Position numbers and translations under genes: made by a program. DNA of 64,000 nucleotides from assembly GCA_024679065.1 (NCBI GenBank), contig JAGIQG010000003.1, positions 48,360,001 through 48,424,000 of the forward strand, given 5' to 3'. Positions 280-51,276 of the stretch are shown one piece after another. The DNA is from Sphyrna mokarran (Eukaryota). How positions within the stretch are numbered: position 1 is the first letter of the stretch; the number at the start of each line of letters is the position of its first letter. The notes beneath the pieces were generated by a model. It saw only the letters and a program-made list of their open reading frames with translations, had not been told where the DNA came from and searched no databases.

Positions 280-905
280 TAGATGTCCACATTTCCACCT
301 GCACTCTTCCTCTTGCATGACAAATTCAACTACCCAGGAGATGCCCAGGACCCTCTGGCTGGAGGGCCCCAGGCTGCTCTCTGACCAGTCCTCTTCTTTT
401 TGGCTTCCTGTGGGCCCCAGTGCTCCACCAAAGGAGTGGAGGGACAGTTGGAATGAGATCCAGAAGCTCCACTGTCCATTAGAGCTGACACTCATGGATT
501 CCCACCAGTGCCTGTGCCATGCAGTCAAAGTCCAGCACCAAGGCCTCCACTGCAGACACCAACTTCACAGTGTTGGCTCAGTGTGCTATTGCGGACACCA
601 TCTTCTTAGATAGGAGGTGATGGGACTCCTCCAATCAGACTTGCACTCTGAACAGGGCTGCTGTCACCTCTTCCTGATGCTCCCAATTCTGCCTATGCAG
701 TTCCAGCAGCTGTGGAATGCCCAGGTCTAGGGGCACATCATCGGCAAGGGGCCCAGCAGAATCACAGGTTCCAGCATGTCTCTGGTTCACTGGGACGTCC
801 CTGACTTTGCCTACTGCGTACCTTCAGCTGTGAGTTGCTAACAAGTGAGTGACCCAGAAGACTGCCTATTTATTGAACCCAAGATATGAGTATCTGTGCT
901 GATGT
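280..905 (-). mobile_element. Decayed remnant of the C-terminal part of a Harbinger Myb/SANT accessory gene
   Basis: GC-rich; minus-strand translation gives short Ser/Thr-rich and NTVKLVSAVEALVL-type segments resembling the downstream part of the Myb gene at ~58050-58500; many stops. Confidence 0.45.
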
Positions 906-1039
906 CAAATGTAGGTGACATGTCTGTTAGTTGTTTCAAGTTACATTTGACACTCTGTTTATCTTTGTTATGCCATTTACACATTCTGATTTTTTTATGG
1001 CTGCTATCAATGGCGGCATGGACAAGTTGGGCCGAAGGA

Positions 1040-1190
1040 TTAGCCATGATCACCATTGACATTTCCTTTGTCTTTTTGTCCATTTATCTTTAGCAACTCC
1101 ATCTGCTCCCTTCATCCTAATAATGTGCATTCCAACCTATTTTCTGTTGTCTTCAGCTCTGATGAAGGGTCATCCAGACTTGAAATATGG
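1040..1190 (+). mobile_element. Penelope-like element 3' terminal (pLTR) fragment, preceded by a short CR1 tail at 1012-1039
   Basis: Pyrimidine-rich pLTR-like sequence ending in CTGATGA-AGGGTC-ATCCA-GACTT-GAAA. Confidence 0.65.
1154..1190 (+). ncRNA. Decayed minimal hammerhead ribozyme motif (Penelope-associated)
   Basis: Core CTGATGA at 1159-1165, stem II GGGTC/GACTT, GAAA at 1182-1185; the expected palindromic stem III (AACGTT) reads AATATG, so probably inactive. Confidence 0.6.
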
Positions 1191-1829
1191 GAAATGATTT
1201 TGAACCTGCACTCTCCAAGCGCGGAAAGGGTGGCATGTGTTAGAAATGCACACAGTACGTTTGTGCCGGCAAGTTCCAAGTTCCAATCTTCCCAGCCTCT
1301 CATCGGTGGGGTAGAGTGAAACATGCCATGGGACCACAGAAAGGCCATTTTAATATATTAGTGAGCACTCTCTCCAGGATTTGCCCCCTCACCTGATATT
1401 CAGCAAGTGCTGGCATGACATCATTCTGGTAATAGCTCTACATCAGTGTGAACCTGCCATCTTCACCTCCAAGGGTGATTACAGAGGGGAGCACTCAGAC
1501 AACCTGCACCCATTAAGTATGAACTGCTCAGGGGGCACCAGGCAGGATACAGATAAGTTCAACTCAGGACCAAGGGTGGAGAATCCCTGAATCGTCATTC
1601 CAGGGGTAGAGGTTGGGAAGGATCATTTGTAGACCTTCCCTTCCCTTATATCAAAGCACCCTTTGCTTTAAAGGGGCTGTGAAGATTAGTATGCAGGCAG
1701 CACTTGCCGTATCCTCCATCCTGAGCACTGCCATTCTCACACTCCACAAAGATGAGGTGCCAGGTGAGTGTGATGGTTCTCCCAATGATGGGTCCATGAA
1801 ACATGGATTTTTGACTACTTTCTTGGCTG

Positions 1830-2790
1830 AAGATGTGTTGATTACAGAAAGGGGGGATGTTGTATCTTCTATGATTGCATGGGAAGATATCAGGGTATTC
1901 TGGAGGGATGGAATGCTGATAGGAGGAGGGAAGGGAAGGTGCGTTCAGTAGTGGCATCATGCTGGAATTTGTAGAAATGGTGGAGGATGATATGTTGAAT
2001 GCAGAGGCTGGTGGGGTAAAAATGAGGACAAAAGAAACTCTATTCTGACTCTGGGAGGAGGGGAAGAGGTGAGAACAGTGGCACAGGAGATGGATTGGGC
2101 ATGTTTGAGAGCCCTGTAAATCACAGAGATTGGGAAACCACATTTAAGCAAGAAAGAAGACATAGCAGCTGTGCCATTTTGGAAAGTAGCATCATTAAAA
2201 CAGATGCAACACCTTTGGAGGCAAAGTAACTGAGCAAATGGGATGGAGTCCTTTCAGAATGTGGGGTATGAAGAATTGTAGTGAGGTTGCTGCGGGAGTC
2301 AGTGAGTTTATAATTGATATCAGATGGACAGTTTACTGCCAGAACTGGAGACAGAAAGGTCAAGGAATAGAAGGGAAGTATCAGAAATGAACCATGTGAA
2401 GATGATTGAAGAATGGAAATTGGAAGAAAAATTGATAGATTTTTCCAGATCTAAACCAAAGAATGAAGCAACAGCAAAAAGTGGTTGATGTACTAATAAA
2501 GGAGTTATGGAAGGGGGCCAGAGTAGGACTGGAACAGGAATGTTCTATATACCCCATAAAAAGACAGGCATAACTAGCATACGTGTGTATCCATAGCCAC
2601 ACTTTTAATTTGGAGGAAGTGAAACAAGTTAAAGAAGAAATTGTTGAGTGAGAGAACAAGTTCACCAGATGGAGGAGAGTGGTGGTGGATGGGGATTGTA
2701 CAGACCTCTATTCGAGGAAGAAGCAAAAAGCTCTCAGGTCATCCTGTTGAGAAATGGAGCAAAGATGGATTGGACATTTTACTGCTTGGA
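1830..2790 (-). mobile_element. Penelope-like retroelement, decayed RT and linker region
   Basis: Minus-strand fragments SYACLFMGYIEHS, QDDLRAFCFFLE and NRVSFVLIF resemble Penelope RT motifs (GPSYACLFVGYVE, DGLRALRFFLE, RVPLVLTYHP); frameshifted. Confidence 0.85.
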
Positions 2791-2954
2791 GCCTCTTTCT
2801 TTGCTCCTCTCTGCAATGGTTCCTACCAGTGGTTTCCTCTTCCCAGTAGTTTGTTCCCCTGTTCTCTCTTTCTGGTGTCTCCCGTCCCCTCTCCCTGTTC
2901 CTTGTCCCAAAACTATATTCCAATATAATGGCCCCATGCCTAGGCGACAGTCAG

Positions 2955-3045
2955 TGTAAAAGCACATATGTCAACTGCAAAGCACTTTGGAATAACCTCA
3001 AGATGTAAAAGAGACTGTACAAATTTCAAATCTATTTTTCTTTCT
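2955..3045 (+). mobile_element. Short L2/Deu-SINE-type 3' tail fragment
   Basis: CTGCAAAGCACTTTGG...GTAAAAGAGACTGTACAAATTTCAAATC resembles the tail of the SINE at 5105 and the fragment at 46990-47055. Confidence 0.45.
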
Positions 3046-3096
3046 GTAATCAAAATCCACAAGTACATTTGGACCTAAAACAGTTGTTATTTTAAT

Positions 3097-3255
3097 AAAA
3101 TAAAAACAGGAAATGCTGGAAAAGCTCTTCAGTTCTGGCAGCATCGTAGAGCGAGAAACATGCTTCCCTCTCCACAGATGCTGCCAGATCTGCTGACTTT
3201 CCAGTATATTTTCTTTTTTGTATTTCAGATTTCTAGCATTTGGAATATTGTGCTT
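3097..3255. mobile_element. Inverted pair of Penelope 3' ends (hairpin with one-sided tail)
   Basis: TCTGGCAGCATC (3134-3145) / GATGCTGCCAGA (3177-3188) perfect IR within ~60-bp arms; extra ~30-nt tail on the right arm only. Confidence 0.8.
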
Positions 3256-3627
3256 GTATGTTGGTTTTCTGGCGTCTATCAGAAACCTAATTCAAAACAC
3301 AACAGAGCAGGAATCGCAAGATGCAGTAATGATGTGGGTGCAATGGACTCCAGCCAAGCTGCTGAAGTAGAAGTTTTAAAAAGAAAGATTATTTTCATAA
3401 TATATACACAGATTGAATTCTAGTGACAAAAGTCATTGCTCTATATACTGATTAATATCCTGGCATGTTTTAAATGAAGGGAAAGAGAGTAGATTAACAA
3501 ACACAGAGGTATTTTAATTAGCAAAAAACCCTTTCTGAGATAACATCATTCTCAGAAACATTTTTTTAAATTAGCTGCTCTAATTCAGGAAAATTGTTTT
3601 TTTTACTGTGTATTCTGTTGGGTCAAG

Positions 3628-6344: not shown

Positions 6345-6980
6345 TTGGTGACTGAATCAGCCATATAAATAATGAGACTACAAGAATAGATGACGCTGGC
6401 AATTCTGCAGAGAATAACGTACCTCCTGTCTCCTCAAGCCTACCTACAATCAACAAGGTACAAGGAGTGTGATGAAATACTCTCCATTTGCCTAGTTGAG
6501 TGTAGCTCTAACAACATTCAAGAAGCTTCACACCATCCAGGCTAAAGCAACCGACTTGATTGGCAGACCATCCAGAAACATGCACTCCATCCATCACCAA
6601 CACACACTAGGAACAGTGTTTAACATCTACAAGATGCACTGCAGCAACTTGCCAAGGCTGCTCAAGCAGCACCCTTCAAATCCATGGCTGCTACAATCTA
6701 AAAGGACAAGGGCACAAGATGCGTGGGAACATCCTCACCTGGAAGTTTCCCTACAAGTCACTCACCATCCTGACTTGGAACTATATCACTGTTCCTTTGC
6801 AATCACTGGGTAAAAAGCCTGGATCTTCCTTCCTACCAGCAGTGTGTGTGTACCTATACCTCAGGGACTGCAGCAGTTCAAGAAATGAGCTCACCAAGAC
6901 CTTCTCAAGGACAATTAGCGATGGGCAATGACTGCTGACCTAGCCAGCAAAACCCACATCTCAGGAATGAATTTTTAAAA
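6345..6980 (+). mobile_element. 3' part of a second non-LTR retrotransposon family ('LINE-B', CR1/L2 group)
   Basis: ORF 6496-6813 TTFKKLHTIQAKATDLIG...YKMHCSNLPRLLKQH is an ORF2 C-terminal region; tail AAGGACAATTAGCGATGGGCAA...CTAGCCAGC...GAATGAA; further copies at 51280-52330 and 56325-56710. Confidence 0.8.
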
Positions 6981-7669: not shown

Positions 7670-7954
7670 GGGATGGCATAATGGCACAATGGATAGCATT
7701 GCTGCCTCCCAGTGCCAGGGACCTGGGTTCGATTCCTGGCTCAGGTCACTGTCTGTGTGGAGTATGCATGTTCTCTCCGTGTCTGCAAGGGTTTCCTCTG
7801 GGTGCTCTGGTTTCCTCTCATAGTCCAAAAGGCGTACTGGTTAGGAGCACTGACCTGAACAGTTACTGGAGTGTGGCGACTAGGGGAATTTCACAGTAAC
7901 TTCATTGCAATGTAAATGCAAACCTTATTTGTGACTAATAAATAAATAAACTTT
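7670..7954 (+). mobile_element. HE1-like V-SINE with non-HER1 tail
   Basis: tRNA head (TGGCACAATGG; GGTTCGATTCC), V-domain GTGTGGAGTATGCATGTTCTCTCC...GGTTTCCTCTCATAGTCCAAAA, tail TCACAGTAACTTCATTGC...TTGTGACTAATAAATAAA. Confidence 0.92.
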
Positions 7955-13969: not shown

Positions 13970-14214
13970 AGTACTATCATAATGCTTTAAAATTCAGCAG
14001 TTTTTTTACGAATTGGGCTGTATTGATGCTTTTGTTTGTTTAATACATACTATTTTAAGGATCCCCATAAATGCTAAATCCTCTTAATTCATTAAATATT
14101 ATCACATAAACAAACATACTTTTGTAACACGCCTTGCCTATCCTGAGAACAATCAACTGACAGGAAATTATTGACATAGAAAGAGAAAATGGTCTACAAT
14201 GTTAATGAGTTTTT

Positions 14215-14495
14215 AAAGTTTATTTACAAGTCACGAGTAAGACTTACATTAACATTGTAACAAAGTTACTGTGAAATTCTCCTAATCACCACAGTCCGGC
14301 ATCTGTTCTGGTTAATGCACCTAACCAGCACATCTTTCAGAATGTGGGAGGAAACTGGAGCACCCAGAGGAAGCCCACACAGACATGGGGAGAACATACA
14401 AACTCCACACAGATGGTGATTCAAACCAGGAACCAAACCCGTGTCCCTGGTGCTTTGAAGTAGCGATGCTAACCAATGTACTGCCAGGCCGTCCC
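14215..14495 (-). mobile_element. HE1-like V-SINE with non-HER1 tail
   Basis: TGTGGGAGGAAACTGGAGCACCCAGAGGAAGCCCAC (V-domain, reverse complement) plus tRNA head and the same tail as 7670. Confidence 0.92.
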
Positions 14496-17400
14496 ACAGT
14501 TTTGTCCACACAAGAGATGAAACTAACTTTCCTGTCAACAGTCAGATTTGTCATTCCTTAACATTATGACTCTTATCTGAAGCCCAGTCTTCAAGCAACA
14601 AGTTTATTCTTTATCCGGACATTCAATTAGTACAGAACATGTCAGATATTTTACTATAAATCAGGATATTTTGTGTACACAACTTTGTAGTTTTCCTTCA
14701 TTTGAAGTGAATTCCTTACCTTTGGTTTCCTGGCGCATCAATGAACGAGTCTATCCTGACTGCCTGTACTCCTACATTTTGCTTGTCTGGTTTCTCCAAT
14801 TTCCCTTTTCATGTAGGGTAATGCCACAGTCTTCACTGGAGACCTTATTTTGGAGGGCTTTAACAAAAAAACCCAACAAATATAGGAACAATCTTATATT
14901 CAGCCCATAATGTAATGTCACAAATCACCTGGAAATATTGGGCGAAATTTTGTGTAGGTGAGAGCTGGTGGCATTCGGACACTTGACAGGCCAGAAGCCG
15001 ACAGCTCTATTGATGAACAACAGCATCAGGGAAATGTTGGCTCTTGCTAGTATGTCACTAGCAAGAGCTAAAATCCTCACTGGGTCCCAAGCCAGAAATC
15101 AGAGCGAGTGATGACAGGTTGGGCGTCATAGGGGAAAGGGTTTGGCAATAAGTACAGGATAGTGGATTCTTAATGCTTGGTCTCTTGATCAGGCATGAAG
15201 TGTCTCTGAACAAGTAACGCAGCTTGGAGCATGGCAGCAACACTGCAAGTGTTTGTCTGTTGTGTTCCCTGCACGTGGGTCGCCCAATATGGGTTAACAC
15301 CAATGGCAGTGGGGTGAGGCCCATGAGTGAGTAGTAATTAACTATTTCAGAGCCTTAATTGTCAGTTGGGAAGGCTGTCCTCAAATCTTTTCACCACAAA
15401 ATCAGATAGAGCAGGAATTTGGTAGGGTTCCCACACCCCACCCTTCTGTCTGATTAAATGTCATTCCTCATGCCCCCCCCTCCCCCAACAACAGAGCTTC
15501 ATTTTTAACAATAGTGAAATCTAAACTTAATCCATGTGTTTGTTGAATTCAATATTTAGTTTTTTTATACATATAAAATGATTCTTTTGTATCCATCACC
15601 AGGGAAGTTAGCTAAAATTGTTGTCATCATTTTGAACTATTTTATTTTTATACTATTAACTGGAGGTTCCAACTGAGTTGCACAATTTCTTGTGTTCCAT
15701 TCTATTCTCAGAGAAATCAAAGCTCTGAACATTTTTACTTAAATGGTTTTGCCAACTTTTTCTCACTTAAACTTTTAATGTTGTGTAAGAGATCATTTGC
15801 TGTTACCTTTCATCTAACAATTAGTGTCAGAGGGCTCCGGTGATGTGGTTCGAATTATTGTTAAAGAAATTTGCTTTACAGTATGCCCAGCCAGACAATG
15901 ACAAGTGAAGGGGAGAAAGTCGCGAGGCCATCTCTGTCTGGCGGTCTCATCCTGATGCCAAGATATATGATACTGGTTCAGACATAGTTAAATTGCCAAT
16001 ATTATACTGGTGAGGCACTAAAACCATTTCATTGTGACATATACAATGTGTAGAGTAATTATCGTAGAATGGAGTTTTTGTACTTTATTCAAATCTTTGA
16101 AGTTTACCTTTGGAAGAAACTATTTAAATGAAAAGGTCATTAGAAGTCCACATACTGTTCAGTTTCCAAGTAAAACAAATTATTAATATTGTTTACATTG
16201 ACTATCTAACAGTGTGTACATAACTTTAATGTAAATGACTGAGATATATTACAAAAGACATTCTTCCACTGATTTAATGGACACATCCAAAGCGACATCT
16301 TGAACAGCAAAGATCAAATTGTGCATACAAATAACTAATGGCAGGGTATATTATGAATTCAAACATCACAGAAAACTGTCAAGTAATATTTACATAATAA
16401 AATTGCACAATAAAATAGTACATTAATATAAAGAGTGTAATGTATATTTTTATACTAAATTCTGAGACACACTGAGAATTTTCAGTTTCATTTATTTATG
16501 CCATTTTTGAAACAAACTTTTTTTTAGCACTGATTACTCTTAAAGTTGTAATTTAGTGTTTTGGGTGAAGGATTGCTTGGACTGCTTTGTGTAGCGATAA
16601 ATAAAAAAGAGTGCATTTGTAATCTTGTTACAAATGGACACCAGGCTGAATCTTCCATTACTTCTGCATATTAAAATAATTTCCTTTTACAGCTCTAATT
16701 CAGAGACAGTAAGTTTCTTATCATGAACAACTCCTCATGTTGCTGTAACATAGGAAACAACACAAGTAAGAGTTCAAATCACCAAGCCTCCTTTGTGCAC
16801 TTCCTAGGATTATCTTTGTTCCTTTTCTAGCAAGGTTCAAGCTTTAAGTTTCCACTTCACCAAGCTGCATAAGGCTGGAGACGGGCTGTTAGCTCATCTT
16901 TTCAACTAATCAACGAAGGAAAGAGCATTGATGAAAAAATAACCATTGTTACAAATTAATTTCAAAATGTTTTTGGACACAAAAAATATTACAAGAAATG
17001 ATCACAAAATCATTCCTGGAAAGTTTTTAGTATCTTCCAAACACTTAGCATTTGTGTATAAATGATTCCGCCGCAATATGAAAGGGTGAGATTGAATTTG
17101 TGCCTCTAAAAAGCTCAGTTTCAAGCAAGACACTGTAGAGTTCAAAATATATTGGGCTTCTTTACAAAACAGCTCAGCCTTCATAATATTTCACTTTCAA
17201 AGCTAGAAACCATTCGTGCTACACTGCAAAGTTTTGGACCTCAATATCCTTCAGGGGCAGATTTATGCATGTTTTTGTAAACCATGAAATCAAGTAACTG
17301 GATGTTATTCACAAAATTGCTTTTTAAAAGAGATGGTCTGACCAAGTCCCAGTGAAAAGAAAAACTCAATTTAATATGATCCTTTTACCGCAAAGATTTT

Positions 17401-20400
17401 AATGCCCAGCAGTTTGAATTCAGAATAAAGAATTCATTTCCGAAACTGGTGTGTGTTTTACACCGAAACACCACTGTCTTTTTTAAATAGAGTAGTCACC
17501 AATCCTGTCAAATCTTTTTGTGGTTATCGCTCCTATTCCTTTAGTTGGGTCACTTTGTTTTCTGCTCATTAGCAGTAATACTACCTAGGCAGAAAATCAG
17601 TAGTCCATAAACTAAAAGCTTCTTTGGACGCCAAATTACCCCACTAATAGTGTAAAATCAATTAACACCTCCTGGGACATCATTATTGTCACATTATGGC
17701 ACCTGATATCCTCCAGGACCAATAAGTGATTTATGGAAATTCAAATCATATGCCTCAGAAAAACAAACAATGAGGATTACAGAGGAACTCCTAAAGAAAT
17801 GTGAGAGATGCATACAACGGTAAAACACCCTGGAGCAAACTGATTAATTTCAGTTTGCTAGATGTTGCGATATGTTTACTTACATTGTTACTGATGATAA
17901 TACGAGGGTTGTTATGTCAAATCCCTGTCAAAACACTACCTGCATACTTTACCCCATGTTTTTGGCCACATCAGGGTGCTTTTAATTATGGCGATGCTGT
18001 CTGACATGATCTGATATCCCTGTATAAAGATACATTCTTTGTTAGCAATGATCTTAGTTTCAGACTCCTTGGTGTATTTGCAACCATGGCAACAGAATAG
18101 TAAGCTAAAGCCAATGAAATAACCAGAAAGTCTCATAGCAATTGTATTTCATAAGGACACAAGTTCCCAAGGGTGGCAATTCACTGTTTCCCCGCCTATT
18201 AGAATATTTAATAAACACTCCTCATCAGAAACACAAGCTCTTTGCATAGAAGTGTTGTAAATGTTTTTGTGTACTGCACAAAACCAACTGATTTAAGATG
18301 AGCAAAGATTTGTGTTAATGTAATTAGCACACAATCCCTCTGCAATCCTGCTTCCAATTGAGTATGTATAGATACCAAATGTAAATTGAATGAATCTCAG
18401 ACTCACAGTTCTTTAATTTAAATGTTACAGTTAATTGAACTTAGTCTATAGTGTTTGTTCAGAGCACTCAAGCCTCACGTACCCATGCGATACCTGGACT
18501 GGTTTGTGTGGGATCACAGACAATCAGGAGTGTTGCTGCTGCGGAAAGAGTCAGTCATTAGGTGTAAAATGCTAATTAAGCCATTATAATGGGTAAATGT
18601 CAAGTCAGAAATGTAGCTAAAATGGAGTAAAATAGTCCAGACCATGAGAATAACAGGACATGCCTGTTTAGACTGTAGAATAAATTCTATTTTAATGGAT
18701 CTACAGCTGCAAAACAGAAATGCAAACCTCAAAAAAGAACAATACAGGGAAAAGACCTCTCATCCTCGCACTCACCAGCTGGTGGGGCTATTGTGCCATG
18801 TCATTTGTGGATTACACACTTCATCTTCTAGGTCATATTTTGCACAGTTTATTAATTTTAGCAAAAAAAGTAAGTGAATATAAAGAGAGATGATACATTG
18901 ATCAAATTGTTCATCTTTTGTTTAGCATTCCTTTGAGAAGTCTTGCCCCTCCAAAAATGGATAAATGAACATTCATGAGAAGCTTTGAATAGCAAAGAAA
19001 GTGTTACAACATAAGACAAATGAGAAATAGAGATACCTGAGCTGTGGTATTCAAGATTGTTCATAGTTGAAATTGTGATTGCAACCAAAGTGCAGTACTG
19101 ACTTACCTTCCTCTCTCATTTTCCATTTTCTCTCAAGAGCACAAAAAAATCAGAGCAGAGTAGGCCACCCAGTTCCTTGAAGTTGTTCCACCACTTAATA
19201 ACCGCATTGGGCAGAACCTTTTGGTTCCATCAGGAGCACAAACAAAGATAAGGGACACTGAAAAACAATGTCCCTCGTGGGGCTAGTGTGGCAATTTCCC
19301 TGTTGCCATTCTTGCCATCAGGTTGGAAGCACTTTTTAGGATCAAGCAGGAGACTCTTTGGAGGTTGGAGTAAAGCCAATCCTGGAAACTCATCCAATTC
19401 AGCAGTAAGGTCAATTGAACAAATTGAGAAACATGTTGAGCACTTGTTGAGGGATTTTGGTACTGACACATGGATTCTATCTTGAGACAGAGGCAGACCA
19501 GATTCATGGAGGTGGCAAAACAATGGGAACCAGTCATGGCTGACTCCCTGAAATTAGGTCAGCTCTTACAAGAGAGCTCAATTGAAAAAGGCACTCAACC
19601 ATTGGCAAACAGGTGCTGTCAAGTGTCCGTAGTTTGCACAGAAAGTATTTAAAAAAACATTCAGGCAATGCAGGGGTTTGTAACCCTCCTAGCATGAGAA
19701 GGGCACAAACAGAGGGGGTGAAAATTTTACAAGTTATTGGGAATCTAGCTGAGTGCAAGGAAGCCAGCTGCTAATAAATGCAACTTGACTTTCAGATTTT
19801 GGATCCAGCCACAATGAGAAACAATATTCCCACAGGAGAGGTTGAGCCTTGATTATAAAGACAGAGAGAGACAAGGGACAGGAAGACAATGGAAGCTTTA
19901 CCCCTCAGCATAAGATCTAGTGAAAGCTGATGCTACCTAGACATCTAGAGAAGCAGTGCCACAGAAAACTGTGATTCTCCAGACAGATGGTCACAGAGAT
20001 TTTTTTCCTTTGTGATGGGAGGTCCCATGTCTTCCTGCACTGCTCATCATTTCCTGCCAGTAGCTACCTAAGTTCCACGGTCCTGGACTTCCCCACCACT
20101 GCCTTGTTACAAGGTTCAGCTGCGGCTTCTCTGAAACGCACACCATTGCATTTCAGTGGTCACTGGTGCCCTATTTGGAAAAGCTATGTAGTCCATTTGA
20201 TTCCAGACAAATGGGGCCTAGCTGGCAATGGCAGCAGTGGAGATTGCCATTCATCCTCTGACAGTCCAGGCTGCTGAGGCTCTTGGTTCCATCTCCCAAA
20301 GCACTGATCCAGTCATGTTTCAGCAGAGACTTGTGATGTTCAAGATTTAATGGTCTGGAACTCACTTTGTGCTGCCTGTGAGAAGACTTCCATTAAAGAC

Positions 20401-20822
20401 ACAGCCTAAAATAGATTCACTCTTATCACCGATCAATAATGCAGATCTGTCCAATGATTTTGCTGTCCCCTTGAACTTCAAAAACCTTTGTTTTCCTTTA
20501 TCATCTCTTTTCCAGGCTCATCAATAGGGAGTGAAAATTTACATAGTTGGCATCTCATGCCAATATTTCCACTGTGCTGAAACAGAGAAGTACATATGTA
20601 TATGTGAAGCACATTTGTAGTGCCACACTACATAATGGAGGGTATTCTCTACATGAAGATGATTCCTCTCCACAAGGACTAGGTGATGGTCATTCCTATG
20701 AATACTCTCATGGACAGAGCATCTGTTACAGGCAGTTGGGAAGAATAGGGTCAAGAAATATTTTCTTCTTCTTGGTCACCACCTGCCACTCATCCAGTCT
20801 AGCAGCTATGCCCTTTAAAACT

Positions 20823-20976
20823 CAGTAAGAAGTCTCACAACACCAGGTTAAAGTCCAACAATTTATTTGATAGTAAACCCATTTTACTATTAAATAAACT
20901 TGTTGGACTTTAACCTCATGTTGTGAGACTTCCTATTGTGTTTACCCCAGTCCAACACCAGCATCTCTACATCATG
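20823..20976. mobile_element. Penelope-derived mini hairpin insertion with 3' tail
   Basis: ~55-bp arms CAGTAAGAAGTCTCACAACACCAGGTTAAAGTCCAAC.../...GTTGGACTTTAACCTCATGTTGTGAGACTTCCTATTG, 5-nt loop, ~38-nt tail; flanking duplication CTTTAAAACTCAG / CTTTAGAACTCAG. Confidence 0.88.
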
Positions 20977-21568
20977 ACTTTAGAACTCAGCCAGATTGGT
21001 CAATAGTAGTGCTGCTAAACCACTCTTGGTATGGTATTCTGCATGTTTGCCACACTGTGCTTTTGCCAAATGGTTTTCAACATGGAGGATTGCTGATTCA
21101 TCAGTTGAGTTCCAGGGAGGTGGAGAGAGGCAGTAGGTGGTAACCAGCACATGGCTTCCTCAGCTATGTTTGACCTGATGAAATGAGCCTTCATAGAGTC
21201 TAGAGCCGATGTAAAGGACTCCTAAGCCAACTCTTTACTGTATACCATTGTGCCACTGGATTTTATGAAGCAATCCTGCTGAAGGTACAGGGCGTACCCA
21301 GGGATGATGACCCATTGTCTGTAAGGTGTGATTCTGTAAGTATGACTATATAAGGCTGCTACTTTTTCATAGGTCAAAGTATTTTGGCCAAAAACCTCAG
21401 CTGTGAGTAAGAAGGATTTTGCAGGATTGACAGAGTTGGGTTTGCTACTGTCATTTCCGGTGCCTCTGTCAATGCCGGGTGACATCTCTGGTTTCATTCA
21501 TTTTAGACATCATAGCAATTTGCAACAATTTATAATTTATAACAATGTTCAATGGTTTCATAGAATAA

Positions 21569-21830
21569 GGGCAGCATGGTAACACAGTGGTTAGCACTGC
21601 TGCCTCACAGTGTCAGAGACACAGGTTTGATTCTCGTCTTGGGTGTTTATATGTGTGGAATTTGCAAGTTCTCCCCATGCATGTGTGGGTTTGCTCCCAC
21701 AATTTGATACATGTGCTGGTCAGGTGCATTGACCCGAACAGGTATCAGAATGTGACGACTGGGAGAATTTCATAGCAACATCATTGCAGTGTTAATGTAA
21801 GCCATACTTGTGACTAATAAATAAACTTTA
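21569..21830 (+). mobile_element. HE1-like V-SINE with non-HER1 tail (internally deleted)
   Basis: GGGCAGCATGGTAACACAGTGGTTAGCACTGCTGCCTCACAG head; tail CATTGCAGTGTTAATGTAAGCCATACTTGTGACTAATAAATAAAC. Confidence 0.9.
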
Positions 21831-21948
21831 CTTTTTTACTTCACCTTCTTTGCCTTTTTAAACAACTGAGTGCCTTGCTAGGTCATTTCAAAGGACGGTT
21901 AAGAGTCACTCCCATTATAGTGAACCTGGAGTCACATGCGGGTCAGAC

Positions 21949-22307
21949 TTTTTTTTATTCATTCATGGGACACAGGCATCACTGGCTAGCCAGCATTTAT
22001 CACCCATCTCTAGTTCCTGAGGGCAGTTGAGTCAACCACATTATTGTGGCTCTGGAGTCACAAGGAGGCCAGACCAGGTAAGGATGGCAGGTATCCTTCC
22101 CTAAAGGACATTAGGATTCCAGATGGGTTTTTCCAAAAGTCAACAATGTTTCATGGTCATCAATAGATTCTTAATTTCAGATTTTTTTTATTGAATTTAA
22201 ATTCCACCAGCTGCTGTGATGGGATTCGAACCCATTAGTTCATAGAAGATTAGTTGAGTCTCTGGGATTGATAGTATAGCAATAATACTACTGGACCATC
22301 ACCTCCC
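21949..22307 (-). mobile_element. tRNA-headed SINE with LINE-B tail ('SINE-B'), inserted into a homologous sequence
   Basis: Minus-strand head GGGAGGTGATGGTCCAGTAG...GGTTCGAATCCC; tail CTAGAGATGGGTGATAAATGCTGGCTAGCCAGTGATGCC...GAATGAATAAAAAAAA matches the LINE-B tail. Confidence 0.85.
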
Positions 22308-22546
22308 ACAAAGGATGGCAGGTTTCCTTTCCTAAAGGATACTTAGTGAATGAAATGGGCATTTACAACAATTCTTAATGGTTTCATGGACATATTACTG
22401 TAAATAGGTTACTAGTTCCTATTTATTAATTAAAATTAAATTGTATGAAATACCATGGTGGGATTTGAAGCCCTGTCCCTAAAGCATTAATGTGGATCTC
22501 TGGATTACCAGTTGTGACATTACCAGTTGCCACCATTTCCTCTTGT

Positions 22547-24591: not shown

Positions 24592-24950
24592 CATAGAACC
24601 ATAATTTTACAGTGCAAAAGGTACATTTTCCTCACGCTAGCCCATCAGGTCGGCATTGACTCTCCAAAAGGACATACCACCAAGGTCTTCCTCTCTGCCT
24701 TATCCCTGTAACCCCACATATTTATTATGGCTAATCCGACAAACTGACACACCTTTGGCACCAAGGGACAATTTAGCATGGTCAATCCACTTCACCTGTG
24801 CATCTTTGCACTGTGAGAGGAAAATGGAGCACCTGACGAAATCCACATAGAAACGGGCAAAAGGTGCAAATTGCTCACAATCATCCAAGGCCAGAATCAA
24901 ACTTGGATTCCTGGCAGTGCAAAGCAGCCGTGCTAACCACTTTGCCGCCA
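24592..24950 (-). mobile_element. HE1 V-SINE with HER1/CR1-type tail
   Basis: CATAGAACCATA...TACAGTGCA tail, AATTTAGCATGGTCAATCCAC, V-domain and tRNA head (GTGCTAACCACTTTGCCGCC). Confidence 0.85.
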
Positions 24951-28900: not shown

Positions 28901-29261
28901 TTTATTTCTTGAATTAAAGCTGAGGCAAACTGAGTAAAAGATTTCTGAACAAGACTGTTAAAGCAATCACTGAGACTGTTGACTTATAATCAAAATCAAA
29001 TCACATGCAATTTTCCTTCATCCACTGTTTCATACTCATGAATACAGAGAAAAAAAGAACATCGCTTTCCATGTCATTACCATTCTTCCTAAAAGTTAAT
29101 GTGCTGTAGAGTCCATCATTGATGCTTAATATCAGTTACAAGCCACATGACCATTCAATAATTTATATGAAATGCTGTTTGCTGATTTAAGAAACCATCG
29201 GTTAGGTTTTTCATCTGTTGGTATCTGAAAACGACTGCACAAAATTTAACTTACTGAACCA

Positions 29262-29674
29262 TTTTTTATTTTTTCCATGAGTTGTGGGTGCCACTGGCAA
29301 GGCCAACATTTCATGCACATCCCCAAGTTCCCTTGAACTTAGTTTGCCAGACTATGTCAGAAAACATGTAACAAAATCAACCACAGTGCTGTGGGCTTGG
29401 AGTCACATGTAGACCAGACCTGGAAAAGATGGTTGATCTACCTCCCTTAGGGACATTAGGGAGCCAAATGGCTTTTAATGACAATTGATAACAGTTTCAT
29501 GCTTAGCGTTACTAAAGCTAGCTTTTTGATTCCAGATTTCTTATTAATTGAATTTATTAAATATAAATTCCATTAGTTGTCGTGATGGGATTTAAACATA
29601 GATCTCCAAAACATTCTGTTTGGGCTTTGGCTTAACTAGTTCAGTGACATTACCACAACGCAACCATCTTCCCC
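29262..29674 (-). mobile_element. SINE-B (tRNA head + LINE-B tail)
   Basis: Body TCAACCACAGTGCTGTGGGCTTGGAGTCACATGTAGACCAGACC...CCCTTAGGGACATTAG and both ends homologous to 21949-22307. Confidence 0.82.
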
Positions 29675-31982: not shown

Positions 31983-32978
31983 TGGTGCTGGGGCCTCAAC
32001 TGTTTACCATTTACATAGACGATCTGCAGGAAGGGACTGAGTGTAGGGTAACGAAATTTGCTGATGACAGAAAGATGAGTGGAAAAGCAAATTGCGTGGA
32101 AAGTGCGGAAAGTCTGCAGAGAGATCTGAATAGGCTGAATGAGTGGGCGAGGACCTGGCAGATGGAGTATAACGTTAGCAAATGTGAGGTTATCCACTTT
32201 GGAAGAAATAATAGTAGGAAGGATTATTATTTAAAAGGCAAAAAGCTGCAGCATGCTACGGTGCAGAGGAACCTGTGCACAAATCGCAAAAACCCAGTCT
32301 GCAGGTGCAGCAGGTGATCAAGAAGGTAAATGCAATGTTGGCCTTTATAGCTAAGGGGATAGAATACAAAAGTAGGGAGGACTTGCTGCAACTGTACAGA
32401 GTATTGGTAAAGCCGCAATTGGAGTACTGTGTGCAGTTTTGGTCGCCGCATTTGCGGAAGGATATATTGGTCTTGGAGGGATTGCAGAGAAGGTTCACTG
32501 GGCTGATGACAGAGATGAGGGGGTTAGCCGATGAGGAGAGATTGAATAGACTGAGTCTGTACTCGTTAGAGTTTGGAAGGCTGAGGGGGATCTTATAGAG
32601 ACATATAAGATAATGAAGGGAATAGATAGGGTAGAGGTAGAGAGATTCTTCATGCTTAGAAAGGATAGCAGAACTAGAGGGCACAGCCTCAAAGCAAGGG
32701 AGGGACAATTTAGATTGGAATTGAGGAGGAACTTCTTCACTTAAAGGGTGGTGAGTCTCTGGAATTCTCTGCCCATTGAAGCAGTGGAGGCTACCTCACC
32801 GAACATATTTAAGTTACGGGTAGATAGATTTCTGATAGACAAGGGAATTAAGAATAATGGGGAGAAAGTGGGAAAGTGGAACTGATCCACTTCAGATCAG
32901 CCATGATCTTGTTGAATGGTGGGGCAGGCTCAAAGGACCAGATGGCCTATTCCTGCTCCTATTTCTTATATTCTTATA
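31983..32978 (+). mobile_element. 5'-truncated CR1 (HER1-like) LINE: RT C-terminus and 3' UTR
   Basis: VLGPQLFTIYIDDL..KFADD..WQMEYNVSKCEVIHFG and LYRVLVKPQLEYCVQFWSP; frameshifts; tail CCTGCTCCTATTTCTTATATTCTTA. Confidence 0.95.
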
Positions 32979-36894: not shown

Positions 36895-37656
36895 AGGGCT
36901 AAGAATAAATGGAACCCATAAAGAAAAGAAACATGGGTATGTAATTTGGTATCTGACCTACATTGGGTAGGTGGCTTGCAAGGACATTTTGCTCACTCAA
37001 CGACATCCAGAAAAGGCCCAATTGACTACCGTGATTAGAGGAGCAATGGAGTCGCAGATTGCAATTATGGAGAAATGTAACAAATATAGCAAGCAACTAA
37101 GATTGGAAATAAAAGAAACTTGTAAAAGCTTTGAAGCTCAAAAATTATGAATTGTCATTTCTACTCATGTTCCTACGTTTGTTTAGTTCAGCTTATGATC
37201 CCTGAAAAGAGGTGCTGTAAATATCCACCTCCCACATGGACAGCCCAAAGCTGAAGGCTCAAGAATAGTAATGCTATTTGACATTAAAATTGCATTTAGG
37301 TCCAAAGACTAGTTGGGTTTTTCATAGCACAGCAGTAGTTTAATGGTCACAATTGCTAACATTAGCTTTTTGTTCCAAACTTTGGTTAAACTGCCACTGG
37401 TCAGTTTTGAACTCATATCTCCAGATCATTAGGCTATGCCTGCAGATGGACTATAAGGTCAGGAACATTTTGTCATATTCCTAACTCTTTAAGCCTCCTT
37501 TTTTAAAATATATTAACTTAAATCTCATTGATTTTGAGAAGAAATTGCCATGAAAATCACACATTAGTAAGTCAACAATTTTCTTTCTTGAAGTTTTTCT
37601 TTCTGTACATTCCTCCTTATGCCAAAAAAAATCAAGAGCTGGTGGTGATGGATAGC

Positions 37657-38163
37657 CATAATGTGGAAATGCTGCTCTTGCACTGGGTAAGTACAGTAAG
37701 AAGTCTCACAACACTAGGTTAAAGGCCAACAGGTTTATTTGGTAGCAAAAGACACAAGCTTTCGGAGCACTGCTCCTTCATCTGGTGAGTGGGCGTCATG
37801 TTCACAAACAGGGCATATAAAGACACAAACTCAATTTACAAGAAAATGGCTGGAATGTGAGTCGTTACAGGTAATCAGGTCTTAAAGGTACAGGCAATGT
37901 GAGTGGAGAGAGGGTTAAGCACAGGTAAAAGAGATGTGCTTAACCCTCTCTCCACTCACAGTGTCTGTATCTTTAAGACTTGATTATCTATAAAGACTCG
38001 CATTCCAACCATTATCTTATATATCGAGTTTGTGTCTTTATATGTCCTGATTGTGAACACAACTCCCACTCACTTGATGAAGGAGCAGTAATCCAAAAGC
38101 TTAAGGCTTATGCTACAAATAAACCTGCTGGATTTTAACCTGGTGTTGTGAGACTTCTTACGG
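37657..38163. mobile_element. Penelope-derived long palindrome (inverted pLTRs) with one-sided tail
   Basis: Arms 37694-37923 and 37935-38163 are reverse complements, 11-nt loop GGTAAAAGAGA; 37-nt tail at 37657-37693; same family as 20823. Confidence 0.92.
37753..37787 (-). ncRNA. Minimal type I hammerhead ribozyme motif with one core mutation
   Basis: Minus strand CAC-CAGATGA-A-GGAGC-AGT-GCTCC-GAAAGCTT-GTG: stem I CAC/GTG, stem II GGAGC/GCTCC, palindromic stem III AAGCTT; CUGAUGA reads CAGAUGA. Confidence 0.75.
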
Positions 38164-38740: not shown

Positions 38741-39089
38741 ATGGGTGGCACAGTGGTTAGTAATGTTGTCGCAGAGCTCCTGGGACCTGGGTTCAGTACT
38801 GGCCTTGAGTGGCTGTCTGTGTGGAGTTTGCACATTCTCACTGTGCCTGTGTGGGTTTCCTTTGGAGGTGGTTTCCTCCTGTAGTCCAAAGGTGTGCAGG
38901 TTAAGTGGAATAGCTATGCTAAATTGTCCCTCAGGAGTCCTAAGACATGTAGGTTAGATGGATTAGCCATAGGAAATGTGTGGGTTGCAGAGATAAAGTG
39001 GGGGAGAGGGCATGGGCTAGTTACTCTGCCAGGGAGTCAGTACAGACTTGAAGGGCCAGACAGTCTCTTCTGCGCTATTGGGATTCTAT
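38741..39089 (+). mobile_element. HE1 V-SINE with HER1/CR1-type tail
   Basis: GGTGGCACAGTGGTTAG head, V-domain GTGTGGAGTTTGCACATTCTC, tail GGGATTCTAT. Confidence 0.9.
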
Positions 39090-43140: not shown

Positions 43141-43755
43141 TAGTGGTTTAATATTTTATGCTGGCCACTGTTTGCTGTTTCAAAAATTGCAAGTATAATT
43201 CTATATAATAAAATTTTATCTTAAATATTTTACATAAAGCTACAGGAAGAATTAACATTTTTAAATGATCCAACTCTTTCTTTTAATAAATAACAGTAGA
43301 TTATTCAAAACATCATAGAATCTTTTTGATTCAAAGCCACTTTATTATTCTAAAGTAATTAATATTATTTCCTGAGTGGAAAATCTGTTCTTGCAGCCAA
43401 CATCAAATGTGGAAAATGTTCAGATTCACATTCTGGCCAGCATCTGGAAATGAGTGTATTGCCCAGAATCAGAAATAGTTTGTGGGAAAATTAAGTTTAA
43501 AGCAATTGCGTACTAGGGCATAGTTCATGCAGATAAGGAGTTCCGTGGATGCTCCACCATTCATTGTTACACAACTATTTGTAAGATTTATGATGAGAAA
43601 CTATCTGTATCATTATTCTTTGAATAGTGTTCATATATTCCACATCCCAAAATGACTTTCTCAACTACCAACAGATCCTTAATTAAAGGTAAACATGTCT
43701 ACCATATCTTGCCAAATAAAATTCAAACTTGTTTTGAAAATTCTTCATTGTGAAA

Positions 43756-44110
43756 TTTTTAAAATTCTGCCATAGGAAATGAGTGTTGCTGGCAAAGCAA
43801 GAATTTGGTGCCTACTTCTAATTGTCCTTCAGGACAGTTAAGAGTCAAAACATTGATGTGGATCTGCAGTCTCAGTTAGGCTAAACCAGGTAAGGATGGC
43901 AGATTTCCTTCCCTAACAGACATTAGGGAACCAAATGGGTCTTTATGATGACAATAGTAGCTTCACAGCTACCACTACTGAGATTAGCTTTCAATTTCAG
44001 ATTTATTAAGTTTCATCAGCTGCCATGGTGGGATTTGAACGCATTTCCCCAGAACATTAGTATGGGCCTGGGGATTATTAGTCCAATGACATTACCTCTT
44101 CACCATTGCC
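43756..44110 (-). mobile_element. SINE-B (tRNA head + LINE-B tail)
   Basis: CAGTTAAGAGTCAA...CCAGGTAAGGATGGCAGATTTCCTTCCCTAA...GGTGGGATTTGAAC, homologous to 21949-22307. Confidence 0.85.
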
Positions 44111-45574
44111 ACTAATACACATTTTTTAAATAAATTATGACACATAACTTCCTGGCTCCCCAGCACGCATTTGGTGGTGGATGCCCCAGGAAGATGCTGG
44201 GGTAAGTCATCCAGGAAGTTCAACATTAGGGTTTACTCAGCCATCATCCATTAGGGCTAACCTCCCCTGAGCATTTATGCCGGTCGACTAAATGAATTAA
44301 ATCGCAACTTCAGATGGTTCTGTCAGTTTTGTCCAAACAGCTACTGTGGAAGAGTTAGAAGGAAAAAAAGCATATCTAACTATCATTCTAAACACCCAGA
44401 TGGAGCCCGGCATGGTACACTCCTCACACCCACAACTTCATCTCCACTCCCACCCTCATCCCTGATCCTGCCCCACGAGATGTTCCACACTCCTTATCCT
44501 AATCAAGCACACCAACTCCTCTGGCCCAGCCTAACACAACCCAACTTTGGATATCCCCTTCCACACTTTCCCAACTTTCTCCCCCCTTCTCCAGATCCAA
44601 CTCTGATTGACGCCCTCCTCCACAGTGTGACTCCCTGCCCATTCTTTCCAACCATCTGGGTCTCCATACGCTTTTGACTCCACCACCCCCAGATCTCCCC
44701 TCCTTCCATAGAGGAGAATGGGCTTTAGTAGGTGACATGAATCACAGAGGTGTTATGAATCATGGGTGGACTATAGTTCAGGGATGGAAACAAAATGAAT
44801 GCTCAGGAGAAAAATGTTGCCTACTTCATATGTCACAACAAAGTGCTGCTGCATCAGTTACATTGGTTTTTACTACAATGATTAATCAGAGTGCTTTGCT
44901 TTGAAAAGATCAGTAACAATTAAGTTATGTGTTTGCCAGGTTGCTACTTCTAACAACTGGCAAGCAGACAAAGAAAAGTACAGCATTGGAAAAATGAAGA
45001 AGCCATTAGTTTGCAGTTATCCAAAGCCAAAGTGTGATTCCGCATTGTCTACCATTGAAATCCAGATCTGTTAGTGTAATATTTCCCCACTGTTTTTTAC
45101 TCCTTTGAAGTCCAACTCACCTATCTATTTGGCTGTTTCAAAGATTTGACAGATGACTGAGCTTCTGCCTATCTTCAAAGGCTCCAATGGATTCTGCTCA
45201 CTGAGGATAATGTATACTGTTATTCAGTAGAATTTAATTATGAATTCTTGGCTGCTTTCTAACCTACTAATGGATTCTGCTCATCAGGGTTTCATGACAC
45301 AACTGCCGAGGGGCATGTGAGCTTGTTTATCTTGACAGATTTATGGACTTTTCAAAGAGACTAATGGATTTTAAGTCACTATTCAAGTAATGTTTGTATG
45401 TATTGACTGATTTATACATTTGAAAACTTCCAAATGCTATTATAGGGATCATAAGCTTTGTTTGTAATAATGAATTGAAGGAATATATGGTGTGTGGGAT
45501 ATATCGGAGAGGAGGGTTGGGATTGAGGATTAAAGGGGATACTTCACACACACCTCTAGAACTAAGTCAATTGC

Positions 45575-47411: not shown

Positions 47412-48306
47412 AATAGAATGATAGAATCCCTACAGTGCAGAAGAAGGCTATTTGGGCCAATAAGTCTGCATTAACTCCCTGACAGAGTATACCCCCTGCC
47501 GTATCCTGTATGCAATTTTGGTTCACATATTTGTGAAAGGTTATATTGGCCTTGGAGGGAGTGCAGAGAAAGTTCATCAGGCTGACACCGGAGATGAGAG
47601 GGTTAGCTTATAAGGAGAGATTGAGTAGGTTGGGCCTGTACTCGTTGGAGTTTAGAAGGCTGAGGAAGGGTCTTATAGAGACATGTAAGATAATGAAGGG
47701 GCTAAACAGAATAGAGGCAGAGAGATTATTTCCACTTAGAAAGGAAACAAGAACTAGAAGGCATAGCCTCAAAATAAGGGGGAGTCAATTTAGAACAGAG
47801 TTGAGGAGGAACTTCTTCTCTCAGAGAGTAGTGAATCTTTGGAATTCTTTGCCCATTGAAGCAGTGAAAGCTACCTCGTTAAATGTGTTTAAGTCACAGG
47901 TAGGTAAATTTCTGATCAATAAGGGAATTAAGAGTTATGGGGAGCAGGCGGGTAAGTGGGACTGAACCACTATCAGATCAGCCATGATCTTATTGAATGG
48001 CGGGGCAGGCTCGAGGGGTTAGATAGCCTACTCCTGCTCCTATTTCTTATGTTCTTATCCCTGTAACTAATACCAATAGCTAATTATTCTAACCTACACA
48101 TCTGTAGATACCAAAGCAGAATTTAGCATGGCTAATCCACCTAACCAGCATGTCTTTCAGACTGTGGGAGGAAACTATAGCACCTGGAGGAAACCCACGC
48201 AGACATGGGGAGAACATGCAAACTCCACACAGACAGTGACCCAATGTTAGAATTGAACCCGGATCCTGGGCACTGTGAGGCAGCAGTGCTATGCACTGTG
48301 CCACCC
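47412..48306 (-). mobile_element. HE1 V-SINE split by a CR1 insertion (pieces 47412-47506 and 48056-48306)
   Basis: Tail ATAGAATCCCTACAGTGCAGAAG on the left, V-domain and head on the right; TATCC(C)TGTA at both junctions. Confidence 0.88.
47506..48058 (+). mobile_element. 5'-truncated CR1 LINE, same subfamily as 31983
   Basis: ORF 47546-47965 ALEGVQRKFIRL..LGLYSLEFRRLR..FFSQRVVNLWNSLP; tail CCTGCTCCTATTTCTTATGTTCTTA. Confidence 0.95.
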
Positions 48307-48935: not shown

Positions 48936-51276
48936 AAAGAACAAAGAAGAAAAAAGCAAAGTACAGCACAGAAACAAGCCTGCGCTGATCATAGTGCCTA
49001 CCTAGAGTAAAACCGTATGCACTTACAGAGTCCATATTTTTCCATTCCTATCCTGTTCATGCATCTGTCTAGTTGCCCCTTAAACGCCACAATTGTCCCT
49101 GCTCCCATAAATACCTCCTTAGCCAGCGCGTTCCAGACATTCACCACCCACTGTGTAAAAATCTTGCCTCACACATCTCTTCTAAACTTTTTCCCATGCA
49201 GTTTAAGCCTATGCCCCCTAGTACTTGACTTTTCGACCCTAGAAAAGTGTATCTGACTAACTACTCTGTCCATGCCACACATAATCTTGTAAACTTCTAA
49301 CAGGTCACTCCTCAACCTCCATCATTCCAGTGAAAACAAACTGAGTTTATCCGACCCTTCCTCATGGCTAATACCTCCAGACCAAGCAACATCTGGTAAA
49401 CTGCTTCTGTACCCTCTTTAAAGCATTCACATCCTTTGGTAGTGTGGCAACCAAAATGTGCATCGTATTCTAAATGAGGCCTAATTAAATGTTCTGTATA
49501 GCTGCAGGATGACCTGCCAATCTTTATACTCAATACCCCGACTGATGAAGGCAAGCATGCCATATGCTTTCTTGACTGCCTTATCCACCTGCATTGCCAC
49601 TTTCAATGATTGACAGACATCGATCTGTCCAGATGCACCCAGATCTCTCTGCCTGTCAATATTTCTAAGGGTTCTATCATTTACTGTATAACTCCTACAT
49701 GAATTGGATCTTCCAAAATGCCCTCTCTCATACTTGTCTGAATTAAACTCCATCTGCCATTTCTCCACCCAAGGCTCCAATCAGTCTATATCTTGCTGCA
49801 TCCTCTGACAATCCTCACTACCTGCAACTCCACCAATTTTTGTGTCGTCTGCAAACTTACAAATCAGTCCAGCTACATTTTCCTCCAAATCACTGACAAT
49901 ATACTACAAACAACAAAGGTCCCAGAACTGATCCCTATGGAAAACTGCTGATCAGAATCTTCCATTCATGCCACCCTTTGTCTTCTATGGCCAACCTAGT
50001 TCTGTATCTAGCTTGCCAACTCTCGGCTGATTCTGTGTGATTTCATCTTTTGTACCAGTCTATCATGAGATACATTGTCAAAAGCTTCCCTGAAGTCCAT
50101 GTATACAATGTGCACTGTCTTTCCCTCATCTATCATCTATCATCTAAATCACTTCATCGAAAAACTCGATCAAGTTAGTGAGGCACAAGCTCCCCTTCAC
50201 AAAGCCATGCTGTCTATCACTAATGAATTCATTTGTTTCCAAATGTGAGTAAATCCTGTCCCCAAGGATTTTTTCCAATGCCGCAGCAATTTCTGCCCTT
50301 GCCTCCCTCGGTATTCTGGGATAGATCCCATCAGGCCGTGGGGACTTATCTATTTTAAGGCTTTTTAAGACACCTAATACCTCCTCCTTTTTGATATCAA
50401 CATGACTCAGAATATCTACACACCCTACCTCAACTCTTCATCCATCAAATCCCTCTCTTTGGTGAATACTGAGGCAAAGTATTAATTTTAGTATCTCGCC
50501 CATTTCCTCTGATTCCATGAATAGTTTCCCTCTACTATCCTTGAGTGGACCAACCCTTTCCCTAGCTATCTTCTTGCTCTTTACATTCTTGTAAAATGGC
50601 TTAGGATTTTCCTTAGTCCTGTTTGCCAAAGACTTTTCATGACGCTTTTTAGCCCCCTTAACTTCTTTCTTAAGTTCTCTCCTATATTCTTTATATTTTC
50701 AAGGGCTACATTATCCTCAGCCTTTTAGCCCTTACAAATGCTTTCTTTTTCCTTTTGACAAGGTTCATAATATCCCTCGTTATCCAAGGTTCCCGATACT
50801 TGCCACAATTATCCTTCATCCTCACAGATACACACCAGTCATGAATTCCAATCAAATGACCTTTGAAAGACTCTCACATGTCGAATGTCGATTTACCCTC
50901 AAACAGCCTCTCCCAGTCTATACTCTCCAGATCCTGCCTAATGTTATTTTAGTCAGTTTTTCCCCAACTTAATACCTTCGTCTGGGGACCACTCTTGTTC
51001 CTGTCCACAAGCACCTTAAAACCTAAATGGAATTATAATCACTGTTCCCGAAATGCTCTCCTACTGAAACTTCAATCACTTGGACAGGCTCATTCCTCAG
51101 TACCAGGTCTAATATGTCTCCTTCCCAAGTTGGGTTATTTACATACTGTTTCAACAAATCCTCCTTACAAATTCTGCCCCAGCTAAGCCCCTAGCAAAAA
51201 GTGAGACACAGTCAATATAGGGAAAGTTAAAGTTGCCAATCACAACAACCCTGTTGTTTTTGCATCTTTCCAAAAT
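48936..51276 (-). mobile_element. CR1 LINE, ~2.3 kb with internal deletions (endonuclease to 3' tail)
   Basis: WVEKWQMEFNSDK, KAVKKAYGMLAFISRGIEYK, KENPKPFYKNVKSKK, and VVIGNFNFPYID near 51215-51250; (AAGAAC)-type tail at 48936. Confidence 0.92.

Follow-up and report, generated by a model that had tools for sequence, protein, structure and literature searches.

An Interrupted LINE Copy in a Sphyrna mokarran Contig

The window, by which we mean the whole analyzed stretch of 64,000 nucleotides (contig JAGIQG010000003.1, positions 48,360,001 to 48,424,000 of the forward strand; host genome 2.77 Gb), carries a decayed, thrice-interrupted 5′ fragment of a LINE of ~3.29 kb. Minus-strand pieces at 22542-22308, 21948-21862, and 21574-21030 correspond to element positions 1-229, 230-319, and ~320-830, with BLAST identities of 67-79% between window pieces and element. 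The copy opens with a tRNA-like head (22449-22542, minus strand; element 1-94), placed by alignment to the start of the consensus, its A and B boxes having decayed in the window copy, and continues into the first part of a 5′ UTR “body” (22308-22448, minus strand; element ~95-229; 70% identity over 39-227). A younger SINE of a short type is nested at this point (21949-22307, minus strand); it joins LINE 1-290 to LINE ~3224-3293 at 84% and 88% identity and has 39 further matches in the genome. The second part of the body follows (21862-21948, minus strand; element 230-319; 79% identity), and contains a predicted hairpin with a 7-nt loop, CUAGCAA, at 21881-21875. The next insert is an unrelated SINE in the opposite orientation (~21575-21830, plus strand), recognized by repeat copies elsewhere in the window and presumably of the V-SINE/HE1 type. 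This second SINE is tRNA-headed and abundant, being found also at 7685-7946, 14214-14479, 24699-24949, 38743-38996, and 48054-48306.

Beyond it lie the linker, an out-of-frame ATG, and the decayed start of an APE endonuclease (20981-21574, minus strand; element ~320-910; tblastn identity of 36% over ORF residues 1-170). The endonuclease is split by a palindromic insert of 161 bp (20820-20980; 85% identical to its own inverse), a third insert absent from the list in the first-pass annotation, with copies at 37654-37750 and 38116-38161. This ~160-bp element is MITE-like, and numerous copies of it occur in the retrieved loci. The remaining endonuclease region (20600-20819, minus strand, aligned at 20817-20618; element 907-1117; 74% identity) ends where the copy stops, near 20600; the window copy is 3′-truncated, and a search of 14000-20620 for the remainder of its ORF found none. 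With the inserts taken out, the pieces are collinear with element ~1-1117 and have no tail between them, so that the first-pass observation of a head and body leading into an APE region without an intervening SINE tail is upheld.

Two stand-alone SINEs, both old, lie elsewhere on the minus strand, one of a long type (29258-29670; LINE 1-317 joined to LINE 3220-end) and one of the short type (43752-44116; 72% identity over 6-289, its tail aligned by eye only). Together with the nested copy at 21949, they consist, as had been proposed, of the same head and body (70-84% identity) and end in the LINE tail. The same LINE is represented on the plus strand by two 5′-truncated 3′ ends, at 6361-6972 (element 2669-3286; 77%) and 56329-56695 (element ~2870-3270; 68%). 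The window also contains the 3′ part of a canonical CR1 LINE (31985-32977 and 47506-48058), the source of our control, and, at 49493-50115 on the minus strand, a piece of a further, more distantly related reverse transcriptase (24-26% identity).

Head, Body, Endonuclease, Reverse Transcriptase, and Tail in One Element

A genome query with head plus endonuclease gave 40 matches, 38 of which were retrieved. From the head, 26 of the 38 reach the same tail, and 10 of the 38 do so in a single alignment, which bears out the earlier assumption that the endonuclease and the 3′ pieces are of one family. Querying with the endonuclease alone yielded 29 other loci, collinear into the head in 12 cases and into the body in 7, and stopping at positions 307-535 in the other 10. 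These ten have no alternative 5′ end in common (a repeat common to one pair lies at a different distance in each), and in one of them, L024, head and body were found further upstream. Of these 29 loci, selected without the head, 19 reach body or head. When 20 of the 29 were extended, a subset mostly picked for showing head or body, 10 ran from head to tail.

The consensus, built from 47 copies, is 3,293 nt long and consists of the head (1-94), the body (to ~320), a single stop-free frame of 979 codons (294-3233) that is preceded by 293 nt, a short 3′ UTR, and an A tail; there is no ORF1. Pfam RVT_1 and Exo_endo_phos_2 match natural fragments, three of five of which gave matches. Across 29 full-length copies, the 3′ end is an A-rich run, while the flanks upstream of the head are unrelated, and the element therefore starts at the head. 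Target-site duplications score at least 8 in 3 of the 29 copies, compared with 0.5% of 812 mismatched pairs, which indicates that they are mostly absent or short. The order expected by the first-pass annotation, tRNA head, body, APE, RT, and tail, is hence confirmed for one element on long copies. A SINE that happened to land upstream of a LINE fragment could be imagined in the window, where both repeats are abundant and the copy is heavily interrupted, but the identical in-register junction recurs at dozens of loci and in published consensuses, and the translations of two whale-shark gene models, P0124 and P0161, run from body through linker to endonuclease, so chance adjacency is already refuted.

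Other forms of the element were also seen. Four loci (L033, L041, L167, and L169), 1.9-2.5 kb long, keep head and tail with large internal deletions at differing points, and L066:1860-2370 consists of about six tandem copies of a 72-bp segment from the LINE 3′ region.

Relation to Elasmobranch CR1-Zenon

Judged by its sequence, the element belongs to the CR1-Zenon LINEs of sharks and rays and has a single ORF. The available part of a recent report (Stuart et al. 2026; PMC13343379) describes Zenon from sharks, rays, coelacanth, and hagfish as lacking ORF1 and ending in poly-A, and its elasmobranch members (CarCar, HypSab, RhiTyp, ScyCan, and SquAca_Zenon) resemble our element in their single ORF, missing ORF1, A tail, and length of 2.9-3.3 kb. 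The RhiTyp consensus has the same length as ours (3,293 nt), and motif matches to the element occur in the supplement of that paper. A comparison by eye of the first 400 nt shows the head, body, and linker at the start of seven published Zenon consensuses from elasmobranchs, whereas three from hagfish and coelacanth have no such head (PMC13343379). Since shark and ray consensuses both begin with it, the head would predate the shark-ray split. That split took place about 250-300 My ago.

A quick protein tree (41 rows, no named Zenon among them) places the element outside the clade of the canonical CR1 control and gives it no firm position among the unnamed relatives. A protein search with an RT alignment returned relatives at 29-41% identity only; a first metagenome scan and a viral scan gave no matches and a prokaryote scan gave one contig.

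The suggestion that this was an undescribed system holds in part. The LINE family and its head-bearing consensus sequences are known, having been published as Zenon; not found in print are the tRNA nature of the head and the derivation of SINEs. In the available material of PMC13343379, the text is without “tRNA”, “polymerase III”, or “start codon” and the supplement without “tRNA”, and the one occurrence of “SINE” shows no link to derivatives. In the literature covered, we found neither a Pol III-type head described for Zenon nor its link to SINEs; this coverage does not extend to entries in Repbase, Dfam, or SINEBase, to subscription journals, to the Zenodo deposit of PMC13343379, or to supplements on bioRxiv, any of which could contain such a description.

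The tRNA-Like Head

In the consensus, the A box stands at position 11, the element beginning 10 nt before it, and the B box at 74; both are retained by eye across the published shark and ray consensuses. ARAGORN folds a cloverleaf in one of seven group consensuses at its default score, namely the older-LINE head with a long variable arm, and in six of seven at a relaxed score, the heads measuring 88-89 nt; on the window and on 50 metagenome loci, it reports no tRNA genes. Aligned with the 82-84-nt tRNA-Ser(AGA) genes of the genome, the only tRNA compared, the head shows 49-54 identities (z 3.6-5.2). Rfam, searched with seven loci and two stretches at E≤5-10, gives a single weak tRNA match on the head (E=0.56), its other matches being chance. 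The boxes, the cloverleaf folds, and the identities to tRNA-Ser(AGA) indicate a tRNA-derived head with A and B boxes. Directly behind the head, at element position 114 (window ~22428-22423), stands an AATAAA that is kept in most elasmobranch consensuses (by eye).

Scarcity of Pol III Terminators on the Sense Strand

The minimal terminators of Pol III, as given in the available part of PMC8466645, are TTTT and TVTTT. The CpG-restored consensus, from which our zero counts are taken, has none on the sense strand and 25 on the antisense strand. Recoding of the ORF leads one to expect 7.8±2.3, and none of 1,000 recodings was as low as zero. A canonical CR1 control from the same genome (consensus from 29 copies, 570-codon frame) has 9 terminators against 12.2 expected, and among 44 related ORFs from metagenome contigs, none of which has a B box upstream, none is free of terminators (median ratio 0.98). 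TTT is the most depleted trinucleotide (3 versus 25), lower than those containing CpG, and Phe codons stand at TTT:TTC 2:16 in the element versus 14:9 in the CR1 control. An older-class consensus, with 270 differences over 3273 sites, likewise has no TTTT. Against a dinucleotide shuffle, the absence of TTTT taken by itself falls short of significance (p=0.094), though the scarcity of TTT reaches it (p=0.001); in the raw consensus, there is one TTTT (p=0.36 by the same shuffle), and single decayed copies have 0-6 each. TTTT is somewhat scarce in the CR1 control too (3 versus 7.6).

The sense-strand poverty in T-runs, for which the first-pass annotation had named TTTT depletion as a check, is present (0 sense versus 25 antisense terminators) and survives the controls. 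Because the sense strand has no terminators, unlike the CR1 control and the 44 related LINEs, we consider it likely that Pol III transcribes the element, and probably from end to end. A 3.3-kb Pol III RNA has against it that this polymerase is held to be weakly processive and SINEs to measure 100-700 bp (PMC10886601, available part). Contigs of four sequencing runs cover the element, without giving start, strand, or level, and no run listed is recorded as RNA.

The alternative is that Pol II transcribes the LINE from a 5′ UTR promoter, the head being a relic or an RNA structure and the poverty in T having another cause. The available part of PMC10886601 treats LINEs as transcription units of Pol II, and the poly-A end that PMC13343379 gives for Zenon would suit such a transcript; TT itself, at 0.75 of expected, is low, and the test on TTTT alone is weak. 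Yet this account would have to accommodate zero terminators where 7.8 are expected, a deficit seen in neither the CR1 control nor the 44 relatives, together with A and B boxes conserved by eye in shark and ray consensuses, an element start just ahead of the A box, and an AATAAA at 114 that would be awkward in a Pol II transcript. We judge transcription by Pol II to be unlikely and favor Pol III.

Short Elements Joined from the Two LINE Ends

The SINEs consist of LINE 1-290 or 1-317 joined to LINE ~3220-end (the last ~70 bases). Mapping their junctions onto the LINE, another check that had been proposed, resolved two dominant ones, 290 to 3221-3228 and 317 to 3220, with no SINE-only sequence in between, so the short elements fit a bipartite or SIDE makeup of LINE 5′ and 3′ ends only. 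One copy with a third junction was seen (L186:1174-1371, minus strand), in which ~320 is joined to 3192 and the tail is longer. The retrieved loci contain 155 distinct head matches, 77 of which end in the LINE tail (~3220-3293), 62 continue to the endonuclease, and 16 do neither, figures that stem from query-selected loci and are not genome proportions. In group consensuses, young short SINEs and the young LINE have derived states in common at head and tail, and old long SINEs retain older states; diagnostic sites scored copy by copy were too noisy. A tree of heads (62 rows drawn from 112, after removal of 10 named rows and of low-coverage rows) lacks any branch with good support, and a single SINE clade is not rejected (AU p=0.059).

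As possible sources of the SINE body, we compared the central domains of MetaSINE and UCON3 by eye and rejected them, there being no likeness either in two MetaSINE alignments from bivalves or in two rows of UCON3. A search of the hagfish supplement for two motifs of the body found neither.

The pattern fits repeated deletion or exchange. The first-pass proposal that the SINE is the internal-deletion product of the LINE stands as to composition, the SINEs being made of its 5′ and 3′ ends; as to direction, we think it likely that the SINEs arose from the LINE in this way. The order of events could be the reverse, a tRNA SINE with a Zenon tail having come first, the LINE having acquired head and body from it through template switching, with sequence exchanged both ways afterwards. 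SINE monophyly is compatible with our tree, template switching is in the available part of PMC4824008 a standard model for the exchange of modules, and the tRNA part must at some point have come from a tRNA or a SINE. On the other side, the shared part stops, in both SINE types, exactly at the junction of SINE body and tail, and the derived states common to young SINE and young LINE lie at both ends. The long SINE moreover carries a hairpin that headless relatives have in their own 5′ UTR, and its hairpin part thus looks LINE-born. We therefore regard the reverse order as rather unlikely, and deletion from the LINE remains our preferred reading.

A Candidate Start of Translation Without AUG

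No in-frame AUG precedes the endonuclease, the first in-frame Met being codon 182. The conserved out-of-frame ATG stands at 349, 22 nt past an in-frame GCU at 327, and its own frame closes after 37 codons. Just upstream of this ATG is the predicted hairpin with the anticodon-like 7-nt loop CUAGCAA, whose AGC can pair with the GCU. Two headless relatives, L269 and L270, have different stems with the same loop center AGC; in both, GCU ACA likewise stands in frame, 102-108 nt ahead of the endonuclease. These long hairpins lie on metagenome contigs (L269:575-660 and L270:460-500); L269 is the best-scoring of 46 relatives (41% protein identity) and has a Met exactly where the endonuclease begins, and L270 is a short contig of a similar family. 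An AUG-poor start of this kind may be older than the tRNA head.

The hairpin was noticed post hoc, and the motif rests on two lineages; in its strict form, hairpin plus GCU occurs in 2 of the 46 relatives, L269 and L270, which are mutual kin, against a shuffle rate of 1.5-1.8%. Both-side changes are seen at two of four stem pairs (seven sequences, one of them unrelated). The GCU is kept in neither SINE type, its spacing to the ATG in two published Squalus consensuses differs by eye from that in other species, and Rfam, run on decayed copies (seven loci and two stretches, E≤5-10), matched no IRES. We put forward tentatively that pairing of the predicted hairpin with GCU might start translation without AUG, in the manner of the dicistrovirus PKI domain.

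Translation could also begin at the out-of-frame AUG, with its 37-codon upstream frame, and continue by frameshift or reinitiation, or begin at a near-cognate codon, the hairpin being unrelated. The ATG is present by eye in six of seven published elasmobranch consensuses and in both age classes here. Against this, no classical slippery heptamer was seen by eye, the basic leader in the endonuclease frame resembles the leaders of relatives, and L270 has hairpin and GCU without a Met. Such a start is a possibility we take seriously while holding it short of probable.

Interpretation and Significance

The locus leads to what we regard as a real feature, in which a known LINE family combines a tRNA-promoter head that is apparently unreported, a sequence signature pointing strongly to Pol III, SINEs made from its two ends, and a candidate AUG-free start. 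As a whole, it is best explained, with fair probability, by a headed CR1-Zenon transcribed by Pol III, from which SINEs arise by deletion and in which an AUG-free start is possible. An ancestral headless Zenon would have acquired a tRNA-derived promoter before sharks and rays separated; Pol III would make an uncapped 3.3-kb RNA ending in flanking T-runs, and selection would have purged internal ones. Any deletion leaving the head and the tail recognized by the RT would then yield a SINE at once, with no separate SINE birth. In the most speculative step, the uncapped RNA would be translated without AUG, the anticodon-like hairpin pairing with the first in-frame GCU, and such a start, if true, would explain how an uncapped RNA is translated at all.

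In the textbook division, LINEs are coding and transcribed by Pol II, and SINEs are non-coding and transcribed by Pol III. If our reading is true, this boundary is blurred by a natural Pol III mRNA kept over the whole age of sharks and rays; SINEs could be born in a single step, and the origin of a SINE “body” would be known. Its furthest form is an autonomous coding retrotransposon wholly off Pol II, with a 3.3-kb Pol III mRNA, an anticodon-mimic start that needs neither cap nor AUG, and a ready-made SINE in every deletion that keeps both ends. We consider this form doubtful; should the full RNA be shown to be both transcribed by Pol III and translated, the feature would count as categorically new. 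Can Pol III drive a coding RNA of 3 kb, and can a tRNA mimic start translation in a cellular retroelement? Both questions are now opened to tests on short fragments.

Comparison with Known Systems

The closest likeness to the putative translation start is domain PKI of the dicistrovirus type 6 IGR IRES (PMC12221177), where an anticodon-codon mimic stands beside a non-AUG start and where GCU and ACA are among the predicted first codons; the available part of that paper has no occurrence of “retrotranspos”. Our element differs in offering only a predicted hairpin together with 3-5 pairs, in that GCU would be paired and not the first codon decoded, and in that no Rfam match on decayed copies points to PKII or PKIII. 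A retroelement with a Pol III promoter derived from a small RNA has a counterpart in the TRIMp3 group (Cassandra, Helenus, and Ajax; PMC10886601, available part), whose members, unlike ours, are short, non-coding LTR elements, and whose autonomous partners are assumed by that author to require Pol II.

A real precedent for a LINE containing tRNA-like sequence is RTE-1_DAn with its relatives (Kojima 2018; PMC5786205), which belong to another clade and for which the source passage is silent on position, promoter role, and SINE derivatives. The bipartite SINEs of the same study, as far as its available part goes, are reported from RTE and Vingi only and include Bov-tA, AfroSINE, and CoeSINE4. They resemble ours in joining a tRNA head to 5′ and 3′ parts of a LINE, but there the head was added to a deleted RTE or Vingi LINE and the autonomous LINE is headless; the source of a SINE body is, according to that paper, usually unknown.

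A counterpart within Zenon is the Persaeus SIDE of Lepidoptera with its Zenon partner (PMC6740152, available part); its elements are likewise short, combine the two ends of a Zenon of 3.3 kb, 5′ and 3′, and arose more than once. Persaeus lacks both homology to tRNA and a Pol III promoter, and a definition of that type, with neither small-RNA head nor Pol III promoter, does not cover the elements described here, in which a tRNA head is present. Because the present LINE has a tRNA head as its own 5′ end, the product of deletion would here be a SINE.
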